Assembly (NCBI RefSeq): GCF_902652985.1
Contig: NC_047021.1
Location: 3,534,001-3,598,000, forward strand
Direction of reading: 5' to 3'
Origin: Pecten maximus
Lineage: Eukaryota
Length of the DNA: 64,000 bases
Position 1 is the first letter of the stretch. Every line of letters starts with the position of its first letter. Of this stretch, positions 29,601 to 50,299 are shown in pieces. The position numbers and the translations under genes were made by a program. A model generated the notes under the pieces. It did not search any database. It worked only from the letters and a program-made list of their open reading frames with translations, and was not told where the DNA came from.

Positions 29601-30214
29601 AGTGAAATTGATTCAAAAACTTTAACCTAGATTACCAATGTATACCATGTACCACACTTACCGTATTACACATATTAAACTATATACAATGTACATAGAT
29701 TAACCACAGTTAACATATTACGCCATGAACACAAATTCACTCCAGTATCCATATTATACTATGTACACAAAATAAACCCCAGTTACCGTATTACACCAAG
29801 TACACAAGTTAACCTCAGTTCATATTGCATGTCCATGTTCATGAATTAAACCTAGTGTCCAAGCTGACCTTTTGAACTAATAACTATCATGGCATTTTAA
29901 TACTTTTAAGTTATAAAGTAGCATTTATAGATTTTCTTTCTCACAAAACATAAGTCTACAGTTGTAATGGGGAAATCAATACCACGGTTTGTTGTCGTAA
30001 ATAGAAGGGTTTTAACATTTCCATTCATACAGATTAACAAAGCTCAATGCTCCAGTTAAATACATACTTCCATAGGAGACAAAAGCTGACGGTATTTCTA
30101 CAGAGAGTTTTCGTTAGGTCGTTGCCAATGACGCCGGACGTTTAACAAAAAAGAACCACCCCTTTCGTCAGTGACAGTCGTCAAGCAATTATCAATCGAC
30201 AAAAAACTGAGAGG

Positions 30215-30220
30215 TATAAA
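30215..30220 (+). promoter_or_regulatory. Candidate TATA box of g4
   Basis: GGTATAAAT 88 bp upstream of the ATG. Confidence 0.5.
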
Positions 30221-30302
30221 TTCGAAACCACAGTATTGGCCACCACTCAATAGAAAGGTCTTGTGTAATTCACCTCAGTTTCTCCACAGTCAAACAGTCA
30301 AA

Positions 30303-31229
30303 ATGACAGAACAGGCCATGGAAGTGGACTTGAATAACAGGGACCCCAACTCTCTCAACAGCACCATTCAGGTACTTTTATTATTTTATCACTATAGTAA
30401 CATTGTAAGAACAAATATATGTGATTCTATGTATTTTTCTTAGCGAACAATTGTTAAATTGCGTTATATATGGTTAAAAGCACCATATATAGCCTGGAAA
30501 GCATGAAGGGTAGAAATATTTTTCTCTACTTGAATGTATTTTTCGATTCGATTACAGTTTCTTATAAAACAACAGCTTACTGCTATACATAGATACACTT
30601 GACTTGTATAGTCTTAGGAATAACTCCGCTTAGTTAATTACATTTTCATTATATCCTTAGTAACTGGGAAAATTCAAAATCATATTCAATGGAACATAAT
30701 ATAATATTGAATAGAATACTAAACTACTGGTGAATATGAACTTATATTACAATAAGTAAACAACATATACTGTGTGATATGTCTTTTTAACTCGGATACG
30801 AATAAGTACGATACCAAACATGCTATATGATCGTTTTTACCTATTTTTATTATTTGTCGTCCGGTTTTTTAATACTCGGTACTTTTAAATTGACAGGTTG
30901 CCTTTGAGGATGTGTTGGGAGAACCAGAGGGCGCCCATAGCATCGACTGTGTCTGGACCAACAGTTACAAATGCTTCACCTGTGGGAAGAACTGTTGCTA
31001 CAAGTTCATGAGTACCCTGTGTGGAATTTGTATTGCACTGTACTGGGGATGTGAGTTCGCCATGATCACGTTCGAGATGGTATGGTGCTGTACACCTGCT
31101 CTCAAAGTTCATTCCATCATGCTCGGAATTTGTCAACGTTTCTTCGGATCATGCATCCAGTGTTGTCTGGCTCCTCTCTGTGAGACGATGGGATTATGCT
31201 TCGGGAACATTACAATTACTAAGAAATGA
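30303..31229 (+). CDS. Caveolin-like protein g4, 133 aa; exons 30303-30371 and 30897-31229
   Basis: Exon 1 MTEQAMEVDLNNRDPNSLNSTIQ|GTACT; acceptor GACAG|GTT; exon 2 VAFEDVLGEPEGAHSIDCVW...NITITKK*. Confidence 0.93.
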
Positions 31230-31934
31230 TAAAACGATTATCAAAACTTTCGATAGACAAATCAATCAATTTTTGTGCCATCCCTCAACAACTGTGATAC
31301 TAGCCAGTTTTGGCTGGGTTTCCTTGAAGTGAGTCAGTGATATTTTACATACACTTGCTATTTCATTAAGATATCGAGTGGATTATCATCTCAAATGTTT
31401 AATGTTCTACTTGTCATTGATGTATTTCTTTTACAATAAAATATTTATTTAACATGTTTGTGTATGTTGTTAACTAATATCAAATGGAAACAAAGTAAAG
31501 AAACATGCTCCAAACGTCCAGTATCATTCGTCAATGTTGTTATTGGCGCTGTCATGGTGACCGAGGGAGGGTATCAGTATTGTTCAAGAATAGTATTATA
31601 TATGGAACCCTATAGATTAGATGATGAACCATTTACTAAGTTTTGACATAAAAAGTTAAAATATTAAAGACTCTTCAGTCAGATAATCATACAAAAGTAC
31701 TCCGTGTCACGACATTAGTTTGTGACATAAAATATATCATCATTGGGAATAAAGACCTACTTCGTGTTATATGGAGTTAACCGTATTTTTCTTCTTAAAC
31801 TCAACACCAGCTTGGGTAGCAGTCTCAACTATCGGCCTATGAATAGTATAAAAATGTCTACATCATTGAAGATACATTCATTATCAATATATCGACACAA
31901 AACCGCCTGACAAAATATTCTAAAGTACCTCCAA

Positions 31935-46800: not shown

Positions 46801-46865
46801 GGCTTCACCTAATTTCCATTCTCTATATGAGGTATACCTAATGCTGTATAGGATACTTAGAAACT

Positions 46866-47088
46866 CAGGGGCCGCGGTGGCCGAGTGGTTAAGGTGCCCC
46901 GACACTTTAACACTAGCCCTCCACCTCTGGGTTGCGAGTTCGAAACCTACGTGGGCAGTTGCCAGGTACTGACCGTAGGCCGGTGGTTTTTCTCCGGGTA
47001 CTCCGGCTTTCCTCCACCTTTAAAACCTGGCACGTCCTTAAATGACCCTGGCTGTTAATAAGACGTTAAACAAAACAAACCAAACCAA
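46866..47088 (+). mobile_element. tRNA-derived SINE with V-domain-like core
   Basis: A box TGGCCGAGTGG, B box GAGTTCGAAAC, core GGTTTTTCTCCGGGTACTCCGGCTTTCCTCCAC, (CAAA/CCAAA)n tail, TSD ACTTAGAAACT at 46855-46865 and 47089-47099. Confidence 0.9.
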
Positions 47089-48035
47089 ACTTAGAAACTA
47101 TTGTATATAAACAGGACGAGTATTAGCCATCATGGGGTAACCGCAAACCTGTGTTGGAGGGGCTTGAATTATATATGACTGTACATTGACCAATTCACTT
47201 TAAATTCAACAACAACAAAAACACACTTGTATGTCATATATTAAACTCATTATTCTTAATACAAATTGCTCCTTCAAATTGAAATAAATGATTCACTTGT
47301 GTTGTGGAAATAAATGTTACTACACGTTTATTAGTACCATATGTGGATTGGTAGGAATGTGTGTTAGATAACACGCTTTAATGACATGGCTAACCTCCGT
47401 GTGAACCAGGATAACATTTGTCTGGACGATACCGTTATGATATAATAGCTTGTTAATTCTATAATGGGATGTTTACACCACTGATTACAACATACATTCA
47501 TATCTACAATAAGTTATGTTTCTCCATATTGCCTGATTAATCAGAGTTACATTCCTGTTTGGTACCTTTGTAAACATAAACAACAGTTTTATGTATTAAG
47601 ATGACCACTATTTACCGGTATGTTATGGTATAAAATCCATAATCACCAGCTTGGGCGTTACGATAGACAGAATAGACATTTCCCTATATGTTTAGTTAAA
47701 ATTACAGATTTAAGTGGTCATTTCCTAAATCAGATCAGAAGCTAATTCTATTTTCATGTAAAGAGTATTGGTGTTATATTTCAGATTTTCTAGTCCTATC
47801 TTTCAGCGATTCACTATTCGGAAGCGTAAATGGTAAGGTATTGTGAGTAGCTCACAGTGGTATTTAAATATTCACTCTATGACGAGATTGTAATAGGTGG
47901 CCAATCGAAGAAACGTTACCATCTGACTCCAAAAATCAAACACCTCCTTTCCTCCAAAGGTTGTCAGGTAATTAACAACTCACTATAAATTAAAAAAACA
48001 TTTATTAGAGAGGGACACTCACTTGGACTACCAGC

Positions 48036-49962
48036 ATGGCGGAACAACAACAAGAGGTAGATCTTTTGAACAGGGATCCCAATTCCCTTAATTCCACAAC
48101 ACAGGTACGTTTTTATTGCTTATTACAATTTTGATTTTGACCTTCTCTATAATTTTTATTTATGTCTGCTTTACATCTTCTTTGCAAAACAAATCAATGG
48201 GTTCGTATTGTTAATATTATCTCGGCTTATGTGTGCTTCCAATTGTGCGATTAGTTCAAATGCCGTTTCACGGGCAAATAGATGGTCATGAATGACATGT
48301 CAAATTATTAGCATGTTTGTCGAGTATTTTCATATAAGATAGTAGATACGTGTTACCATGGTTACTGTATATGAAGGGTTTGATGAGTAATCTCTTCACA
48401 CGATAAAACCACTTTCAAAAGTATGTTACATATCTTACTATTTTTTATCTAGTTATATGTTTATATTTATTCAATAAATTACCAATAATCATTGTATGCT
48501 AGTTTTTGGGCTTAGACCGTCTTAATGAATCTTACACTTATAATTTATTCATTTGATTTTTTGTCATATGTGGTTATGAATATACTTGCAAACATGACCT
48601 TAACACAAAATAAAGCTCAGAATCCGATAGAAACAAATATCCAGCTTTTTAAAAAAAAATGTTATCAGAACGAGCTAAAATTCTCAAATATGGTCATATA
48701 TATTCCGATATACGATTCAGATTACAAACTGCAGATAACTTATTCAACGTCATTACTTGAAGTGAAGTATCGTAAAACTGTCCGGCTTGAACAATATTTC
48801 CATAGGTGGAACTAAAATATTACTTCTAGAGGTTGAACTAAAAAATAATTTAACTAGATTAATCTAAAACATAATTTAACTAGGTTGAACTAAAACATAA
48901 TTTTACTAGGTTGAACTATAACATTATTCTATAGGTTGAACTTAAGCATTATTCTATAGGTGGAACTAAAACATTATTTCTATAGGTTGAATTATAACAT
49001 TACTTCTATGAGTTGAATTATAACATTACTTCTAGAGGTTGAACTATAACATAATTTAACTAGGTGGAACTATGACATTATTTCTATAGGTTGAACTATA
49101 GCATAATTCTATAGGTTGAACTATAACATTACTTCTATAAGTTGAATTATAACATTATTCTAGAGTTTGAACTATAACATTACTTCTAGAGGTTGAACTA
49201 TAACATTAGTCTATGAGTTGAATTATAACATTACTTCTATAAGTTGAATTATAACATTACTTCTATGAGTTGAATTATAACATTACTTCTATGAGTTGAA
49301 TTATAACATTACTTCTAGAGGTTAAACTAAAACATAATTTAACTAGGTGGAACTATGACATTATTTCTATAGGTTGAACTATAACATTATTTCTATAGGT
49401 TGAACTATAACATTACTTCTATAAGTTGAATTATAACATTTTTCTAGAGGTTGAACTATAACATTACTTCTATGAGTTGAATTATAACATTACTTCTATG
49501 AGTTGAATTATAACATTACTTCTAGAGGTTGAACTAAAATATAATTTAACTAGGTTGAACTATAACATTATTCTATAGGTTGAACTAAGATATCATTGTA
49601 TAGGTTTAACTTAAACATTACTTCTACAGGTTGCCTTTGAGGATGTGTTGGCAGAACCGGACGGCACACACAGTATCGACTGTGTCTGGAGCAACAGTTA
49701 CAAATGCTTCACCTGTGGGAAGAACTGTTGCTACAAGCTCATGAGTACCCTGTGTGGGATTTGTATTGCACTGTACTGGGGATGTGAGTTCGCCATGATC
49801 ACGTTCGAGATGGTATGGTGCTGTACACCTGCTCTCAAAGTCCATTCCATCATGCTCGGAATTTGTCAACGTTTCCTCGGATCATGTATCCAGTGCTGTC
49901 TGGCTCCTCTCTGTGAGACGATGGGATTATGCTTCGGGAACATTACAATTACTAAGAAATGA
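48036..49962 (+). CDS. Caveolin-like protein g8, 133 aa; exons 48036-48104 and 49630-49962
   Basis: Exon 1 MAEQQQEVDLLNRDPNSLNSTTQ|GTACG; acceptor TTCTACAG|GTT at the 3' end of an intronic minisatellite; exon 2 VAFEDVLAEP...NITITKK*. Confidence 0.92.
48795..49632. repeat. About 26-bp minisatellite derived from the g8 splice acceptor (ATAACATTACTTCTATAGGTTGAACT)n, about 32 copies
   Basis: The last unit is the real acceptor CATTACTTCTACAG|GTTG; the paralog g7 has a single copy. Confidence 0.9.
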
Positions 49963-50299
49963 TAAAAGGGTGTTTCAGGAATTTGCTCATGTGATATTCA
50001 AGTCGACAGCTGCGAATCATTTCTCAATTTAATGACTGTGATACTTACCACTATGGTTTTGCAACTGAGTTAGTCATTTTAAGAAATACTTGACAATTAT
50101 TTAAAACAAAAACTCGGCAAAAGAAACTGCTTTGATTTTATAAATAAAATATTTTTGTTTGTATTAAGATGACAAGCATTATTGTCTGTATGATGTTGAA
50201 AACCTTTCCGAGTATTAATATGCTTATCGGTCTATTTTACGAAATTGATTGAATAAAGAATATAAGTTATACATTCAAGCGTTGTGATTGATGAGCAAA

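Follow-up and report, generated by a model that had tools for sequence, protein, structure and literature searches.

A stretch of 64,000 nucleotides (nt) of the Pecten maximus genome (NCBI RefSeq assembly GCF_902652985.1, contig NC_047021.1, positions 3,534,001 to 3,598,000 of the forward strand; hereafter the window, whose own numbering is used throughout) contains five neighbouring caveolin genes, g4 to g8, in which three types of front are combined with different tails. Most probably, g5 and g7 are hybrids that arose by two unequal crossovers in exon 2 of neighbouring paralogs, with exon 2 being kept alike by gene conversion. Each of the two genes lies between its putative parents, and both show anti-Lepore polarity: g5 joins the front of g6 (B) to the tail of g4 (X), and g7 joins the front of g8 (C) to the tail of g6 (Y). 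All five are two-exon genes of the caveolin family (PF01146) with GT-AG introns and belong to a tandem array of 16 genes. Their coordinates and those of related features are collected in Table 1.

Modules, duplicated units and probable hybrid genes

To compare the modules, we expressed similarity as z scores against dinucleotide shuffles for the 10 pairs among g4-g8. The initial annotation had assigned three 5' modules, A to g4, B to g5 and g6, and C to g7 and g8, and this assignment holds, since promoter, exon 1 and intron align within B and C only. Over the upstream 400 nt, g5 and g6 are 95% identical (z 284) and g7 and g8 90% identical over 198 nt (z 87), with z at most 2.5 in the other eight of the 10 pairs; over the first 250 nt of the intron, the scores are z 135 for g5/g6, z 11 for g7/g8 and at most 3.7 for the remaining pairs. 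The other eight pairs have no 5' alignment beyond the NRDPNSL codons.

The tails follow the annotation less closely. Significant alignments of the 3' untranslated region (3'UTR) had been expected for g6/g7 and g4/g8. The first was found, and a Y end common to g6 and g7 is confirmed (76% over 151 nt, z 24). The X end, proposed for g4, g5 and g8, stands for g4/g5 (99%, z 270) but is only weakly linked to g8: under strict scoring, g4/g8 and g5/g8 reach z of about 1, and BLAST finds no match between X and the g8 tail, here called X'. Under three lenient schemes, each applied after removal of the first 8 bases, g4/g8 ranks 1, 3 and 1 among the 91 pairs formed by 14 UTRs (g5 and g15 excluded), with z 3.5-3.9 and uncorrected p 0.003-0.01. 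This likeness probably reflects old homology rather than a shared module of the g4/g5 kind. The string NITITKK-TGATAAAA, cited as a mark of X, is present in g4 and g8, but it coincides with a 66-nt identity run of exon 2 that reaches just 5 nt into the UTR. The motifs ACTGTGATACT, GAGTYAGT and CACRTGACTGTCGG occur where they had been described. Judged from these alignments, the locus comprises three 5' types and two close 3' pairs, and the g8 UTR appears only remotely related to X. A possible homology of the g8 and g11 UTRs, prompted by their shared ATGACTGTGATA, was not significant (rank 15-25 of 91). Elsewhere in the window, g2 and g3 (16437-17441 and 20328-21605) have 89% identity over a common 5' module of about 640 bp, with an exon-2 synonymous divergence (dS) of 0.08 and UTRs that barely align (z 2.4-2.6); their Mizuhopecten yessoensis counterparts have different first exons and a near-identical exon 2.

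The region between g4 and g8 is built from two units, each present twice. The copies of unit 1 are colinear from end to end, at 98.6% over 692 nt, then through the minisatellite, and then at 95.7% over 1876 nt. Between the copies of unit 2, three colinear patches align, namely Y at 74%, a middle patch at 69% and C at 71% (E 6e-20, 8e-5 and 3e-122). A global alignment of unit 2 (78%) was discarded because it was inflated by free gaps and had no control. Comparing unit 1 with unit 2, BLAST gives no match outside exon 1.

Exon 2 itself carries traces of both parents in each hybrid. At nt 4-18 the variable sites of g5 resemble those of g6, and from nt 288 onward they resemble those of g4; g7 differs from g8 at 2 positions in nt 1-306 and carries the g6 alleles at 307 and 309 and in the first UTR bases. 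A tandem duplication with both breakpoints in exon 2 leaves a middle gene with the front of its downstream neighbour and the tail of its upstream neighbour. With both units removed, the locus would read A-X, B-Y, C-X', and we propose that such a three-gene stretch was the starting point. An older crossover between the B and C genes would have duplicated the unit of Y, spacer and C 5' module and produced g7 with its downstream front and upstream tail; a younger one between the A and B genes would have duplicated the unit of X, spacer and B 5' module and produced g5, possibly still confined to a single one of the two homologues. The order A-X, B-X, B-Y, C-Y, C-X would thus follow from two unequal crossovers between neighbours, each adding one gene. 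Recombination inside exon 2, as initially suggested, most probably joined new pairs of 5' and 3' ends, but the order is not evidence for an ongoing mix-and-match system. From the sequence, the alternation is reducible to two anti-Lepore duplications plus exon-limited conversion, and repeated shuffling appears unneeded.

Table 1. Genes, duplicated units and short features around g4-g8 (window positions; CDS, coding sequence).
Feature	Position	Strand	Details
g4 caveolin (A-X)	30215..31229	+	TATA 30215; exon 1 CDS 30303-30371; intron 30372-30896; exon 2 30897-31229; CDS span 30303-31229; putative upstream parent of g5; A exon 1-exon 2 splice in RNA-like run X6
g5 caveolin (B-X)	33690..34594	+	exon 1 CDS 33756-33818; intron 33819-34261; exon 2 34262-34594; CDS span 33756-34594; putative younger anti-Lepore-type hybrid, possibly hemizygous
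g6 caveolin (B-Y)	38214..39116	+	exon 1 CDS 38280-38342; intron 38343-38783; exon 2 38784-39116; CDS span 38280-39116; final 45 nt of exon 2 diverged from g4, g5, g7 and g8
g7 caveolin (C-Y')	41016..42579	+	exon 1 CDS 41068-41136; intron 41137-41839; exon 2 41840-42172; CDS span 41068-42172; AATAAA at 42559, poly(A) tail directly after; putative older anti-Lepore-type hybrid
g8 caveolin (C-X')	47984..49962	+	exon 1 CDS 48036-48104; intron 48105-49629; exon 2 49630-49962; CDS span 48036-49962; putative downstream parent of g7
Unit 1, first copy	31230..34261	+	X 3'UTR, 36-bp minisatellite (about 12 copies), spacer, B promoter, B exon 1, B intron
Unit 1, second copy	34595..38783	+	same 36-bp minisatellite, about 44 copies, 35296-36868
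Unit 2, first copy	39117..41839	+	Y 3'UTR without K-box, spacer, C promoter, C exon 1, C intron
Unit 2, second copy	42173..49629	+	40-bp array (45174-46420) and 26-bp intronic array (48790-49633)
K-box 8-mer CTGTGATA (miR-2 seed match)	31292..31299	+	g4 3'UTR
K-box 8-mer	34657..34664	+	g5 3'UTR
K-box 8-mer	50036..50043	+	g8 3'UTR; extra 7-mer TGTGATA at 49990
Y motif CACATGACTGTCGG of g6	39275..39290	+	g7 copy near 42436-42449
Likely conversion tract, about 220 bp	40943..41161	+	98% to g8 47900-48129: core promoter, exon 1, first 25 nt of intron

Exon 2 within the array and among scallops

The annotation had described a protein core that stays constant while its control regions change. For exon 2 this is correct, as nonsynonymous divergence (dN) is 0.008-0.045, but exon 1 is also coding and differs between A, B and C at 5-9 of about 23 residues. 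The silent sites of exon 2 are homogenised as well: dS lies between 0.039 and 0.356 in all 10 g4-g8 pairs, with values of 0.13 for g4/g8 and 0.04 for g7/g8, whose introns are unalignable or 71% alike. By comparison, exon-2 dS of g4 and g7 against g11 and g12 is 1.15-1.75, g11 and g12 differ from each other by dS 1.03 and dN 0.076, and the silent sites of exon 1 (14 sites only) are saturated between A and C. Divergence changes abruptly at the exon edges. Per 30 nt, g4 and g8 show 0-5 differences within exon 2 and 14-26 outside it; nt 63-287 of exon 2 hold only 8 variable sites across g4-g8; and third-position differences cluster at the exon ends in five of six pairs tested (p 1e-4 to 0.04). Homogenised silent sites with sharp edges at exon 2, next to diverging flanks, are the pattern of conversion limited to coding sequence. 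The four genes compared, of nine in a second caveolin array, likewise show 0-1 differences over 180 nt at the start of exon 2 and divergent flanks. The near-identity of exon 2 is thus likely kept by repeated short gene conversion.

Purifying selection would hold exon 2 alike enough for ectopic pairing, and conversion would then wipe out silent differences up to the exon edges, the introns and UTRs there being too diverged. The crossovers would fall in exon 2 because the homogenised exon is the sole long homology between the paralogs. In the C pair, a tract of about 220 bp outside exon 2 is near-identical as well; its bins match g8 at 90/92 and 98/100 positions against 54/85 to 65/77 around it (flank 64-85%, about 70% overall). 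This tract of C promoter and exon 1 is likely a product of conversion at the DNA level. A cDNA-mediated event was ruled out, since the tract reaches past the TATA box into upstream DNA and takes in 25 nt of the intron.

To place the locus among scallops, we compared 14 proteins from four species, the other species being represented by protein only and exon 1 types being read from about 23 residues. Exon 2 is more similar within species (0.958, 20 pairs) than between species (0.908, 71 pairs; permutation p 1e-4), whereas exon 1 is not clearly so (0.682 within, 0.653 between, p 0.14). The A exon 1 is 3 residues away from the A-like exons of two other species and 5-9 away from its own paralogs. 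In exon 2, the four M. yessoensis proteins group in one clade (100/98) although their first exons are of two types; the exon-1 tree, built from 23 columns, has 1 of 14 branches starred. Two exon-1 types are found among the M. yessoensis records, and either of them comes with two C-terminal types; one of these records, P0001, comes from another annotation, has the same exon-2 protein as P0124 and may be a joined gene model. At 90% protein clustering, the cluster contains 5 proteins in P. maximus, 3 in Argopecten irradians, 2 in Ylistrum balloti and 3-4 in M. yessoensis. Two of the three from A. irradians have clearly A-like and C-like first exons, and the three A. irradians proteins would fit a three-gene start. 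The C-terminal T/N residue proved unreliable as a marker of UTR type elsewhere, as the C-like gene of A. irradians ends in GNITINKK.

K-boxes, expression and the surrounding array

The 8-mer CTGTGATA, which we take to be the K-box motif, was searched for in the first 300 UTR bases of each gene, omitting g5 as a copy of g4. It occurs in 6 of 15 array UTRs (g1, g4, g8, g9, g11 and g12), against 0.14 in shuffles (maximum 4 in 1000) and 0 in antisense, and together with its own shifts ties for the top of all 8-mers. The 8-mer occurs 6 times on the plus strand of the window, each time within a caveolin UTR or the duplicated g1 UTR, and among other caveolin loci one of seven UTRs tested has a K-box. 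The statement that only X carries K-boxes applies within g4-g8, where g6 and g7 are without TGTGAT, but not to the array, as g1, g9, g11 and g12 have the 8-mer too. On this distribution, the K-box reads as an old family-wide feature that g6 and g7 are without and by which X is not special. Y may have lost its K-box; the Y motif CACATGACTGTCGG has TGACTGT in common with the K-box context of g8 and g11 and is possibly a decayed K-box site.

The genome contains seven mir-2 matches over the cut-off, with arms beginning TATCACAG. Seven miR-2-type hairpins lie clustered within 2 kb on another contig (G000:C11, L016:738-2566, minus strand). A K box family of microRNAs has been described (PMC4238352), and the caveolin case resembles its targets in that a 3'UTR 8-mer is complementary to the first 8 bases of the miR-2-type arms found here. 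Control of the K-box caveolins by miR-2 may be suspected from these predicted sites. As a by-product of the crossovers, g7 would combine a C promoter with a tail without a miR-2 site, and g5 a B promoter with a tail that has a predicted one. The g9 UTR (56300-56422) has TGTGATA four times; pairing of the first site with miR-2 continues past the seed, at -24.6 kcal/mol for the duplex against -9 to -16 for the others, which makes it the best candidate site. The hairpins behind the K-box, considered by eye as SECIS-like structures, showed no fitting core, and this idea was dropped. Outside subscription journals and supplements, our search did not find caveolins described in print as a K-box-rich family.

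RNA-like runs, a kind guessed by the tool, provide hints of expression, though their contigs can neither link exon 1 to a UTR nor rank genes. In run X8, C exon 1 is joined to exon 2 over a 703-nt GT-AG intron, loose poly(A) ends lie at 42571/42576 behind the g7 AATAAA, and the end of exon 2 continues into the g8 UTR. Run X6 has A exon 1 joined to exon 2, an X UTR carrying the g4 allele, and also the UTR of g7. B exon 1 is without cover in two RNA-like runs (X8 on g6, X6 on g5), and the g6 UTR appears only as a contig of depth 2.6; this is no evidence of silence, because contigs show neither absence nor level.

A TATAAAT box lies 52-88 nt upstream of the ATG in all five genes, which are recorded as encoding caveolin-1-like proteins of P. 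maximus. Four exon-2 translations tested against the Pfam Caveolin model score 110-115 bits, and those of g4 (109.9 bits) and g7 (113 bits) exceed the curated PF01146 cut-off of 25 bits; all five genes are above the cut-off in a genome-wide search, which gave 28 caveolin matches; 16 fall in the array of g4-g8, and a second array of this contig accounts for 9. This second array (G000:C7, 15.74-15.87 Mb; L006:4439, L007:4483, L008:6286, L009:5922) is of mixed orientation. The window holds ten full two-exon genes and exon 1 of an eleventh, every one on the plus strand.

About 15 long minisatellites with periods of 24-49 bp are spread across the window, nearly one per intergenic or intronic interval. 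A 26-bp tandem array of 25 copies in g9 (53382-54031) is an amplified exon 1/intron junction; CAGGT is kept in 23 copies, giving a stack of potential 5' splice donors spaced 26 nt, and read-through meets a stop in the second unit. The 26-bp array in the g8 intron (48790-49633, 33 copies) is absent from the g7 intron and resembles the g8 splice acceptor (TTACTTCTACAG/GTTG), with 16 YAG/GT acceptor look-alikes of which only the last has CAG. At 12028-13110 lies a 90% tandem copy of g1 sequence, comprising the final third of exon 2 and the UTR, with the K-box kept at 12366. No exon 1 was seen with this copy, which is either a truncated fragment or perhaps an alternative 3' end. By eye, a GC-richer 890-bp segment (50861-51750) that begins with AAAGGGCCTGTCACACTA and ends with TAGTGTGACAGGGCCTTT, forming terminal inverted repeats, looks like a non-autonomous DNA transposon, and a GC-rich tRNA-like stretch (GGGCCGCGGTGGCCGAGTGG...GTTCGAAACC, 46866-47080) with (AAAC)n at its end looks like a SINE.

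Alternative explanations and comparison with known systems

Contigs of three DNA-like runs (X1, X2 and X5) bear on whether g5 is real. Nine differences at 33421-33589 separate g5-type from g6-type contigs. At this position in X1, the g6-type has a depth of 16.8 and the g5-type of 7.7, together 24.5, compared to 16.4 (range 13.5-17.1) for a single-copy stretch, and a collapsed B contig has a depth of 24.6. The corresponding values in X2 are 36.3 and 23.4 versus about 31 (31.1) for single-copy sequence, and at 33764 in X5, 52.2 of 73.1 is g6-type, versus 33-42. Three B copies per diploid fit best, because two alleles at a single locus should show matching depths that add up to the single-copy value. 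The g5 unit is therefore almost certainly a real duplication, and the depths lean towards its being hemizygous, on one of two homologues. It is very improbable that g5 is an assembly artefact in which two alleles of one X-B unit were set in tandem. The units are indeed 96-99% alike, and the depth of g5-type contigs is frequently near half (in X1, 7.7 and 6.0), but the sum in X1 exceeds the single-copy level, and at 34732-34745 no fewer than three versions of X are present in this run (depths 10.7 and 5.8, with the remainder of 29.3).

Five older genes could instead have swapped 5' or 3' modules via long conversion tracts at unchanged copy number. Conversion apparently acts at this locus, also on the C promoter with exon 1; within unit 1, identity peaks beside exon 2 (98-100%) and falls to 90-96% in mid-unit; and g2 and g3 share a long 5' module. 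We nevertheless regard such swaps as very unlikely, as the entire 3-4 kb spacer with its minisatellite is duplicated in unit 1, the same protein cluster has only three recorded members in A. irradians and two in Y. balloti, and depth points to a copy-number difference between homologues. It is unlikely, too, that the array was retained because reshuffling of promoters and 3'UTRs yields new combinations of expression and miR-2 control. In its favour, the hybrids are intact and g7 is apparently spliced and polyadenylated in X8, Y is without a K-box that is present in six cluster UTRs, and M. yessoensis combines two exon-1 types with two C-terminal types; yet two duplications alone give the order without a swap between non-neighbours, and one of the four M. 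yessoensis records (P0001) is the doubtful gene model. That exon 2 is alike through purifying selection or recent whole-gene duplication alone, without conversion, is extremely unlikely. Caveolin cores are conserved (as in the dN of g11/g12), but the silent sites of g4/g8 and g7/g8 are homogenised too, and their dS contradicts this explanation unless silent-site constraint were unusually strong in these five genes only.

Several observations weigh against the origin of g5 and g7 by two crossovers with conversion in exon 2. Unit 2 aligns in three patches only, so that its colinearity is incomplete, and private variants at nt 36 and 121 of g5 exon 2 show that it is not a clean two-parent splice. 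Contig depth, as the tool itself warns, is no copy number; two g5-type pieces in X1 have a depth of 16.6-16.8 and the X UTR one of 31, which would fit four copies; and X1, X2 and X5 have minor alleles in common and possibly do not stem from independent animals. Among scallops, recent duplicates raise the within-species mean of exon 2, the protein trees are weak, with the five P. maximus genes forming an open fork and no supported clade, and grouping exon 2 by orthologs is not rejected in AU tests (p 0.077 for the A-type and 0.20 for the C-type). A wider version of the crossover reading seems doubtful, namely that scallop caveolin arrays are recurrent generators of hybrid genes, in which a conversion-homogenised exon 2 would serve as a standing crossover target, each promoter would be coupled to a UTR that either has or lacks a miR-2 site, other scallops would newly form or retain the same B/C-by-tail combinations, and g5 would be a segregating hybrid that places the B promoter under miR-2 control while the protein core stays constant.

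Similar processes are known from other gene clusters. Anti-Lepore HBB/HBD fusion genes occur in mammalian beta-globin clusters (PMC4041002), where unequal crossover of tandem paralogs likewise adds a chimera between its parents, with the downstream 5' flank and the upstream 3' flank; interparalog conversion, including short promoter tracts, is mixed in there as well, and genes are classed by 5' flank, intron and 3' flank. Unlike the globins as described there, the caveolin array would combine two successive events, intact parents and breakpoints within one 333-nt exon, in a caveolin family of a bivalve. Coding-limited concerted evolution is reviewed for the Drosophila amylases (PMC3924832), whose coding sequences are similar among paralogs within species, as here, and whose flanks evolve independently. 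The Amy genes treated in that review are an inverted pair, whereas the caveolins are five head-to-tail genes with homogenisation in one exon (and in exon 1 of the C pair) and a change in copy number. Hemizygosity and gene presence/absence variation are reported in bivalves, and hemizygous segments are said to be common in molluscs (10.1101/2020.09.15.298695; PMC7653742). In these reports, as depth suggests for g5, a gene-bearing segment lies on a single homologue; the caveolin case would differ from them in that the variable segment would be a tandem hybrid gene from unequal crossover. Outside subscription papers and supplements, we found no paper on the locus when searching the literature on caveolin arrays of scallops or bivalves and on gene conversion and K-boxes in caveolins.

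The mechanisms are textbook ones, and the locus adds a clean fresh example of them without establishing a new principle. Neither short-read mapping nor gene models can be relied on here. The caveolins of P. maximus are strongly enriched in miR-2 seed sites, a link that we did not find in the literature searched. If g5 segregates, siblings differing only in promoter or UTR would provide a natural test of K-box function in a mollusc.

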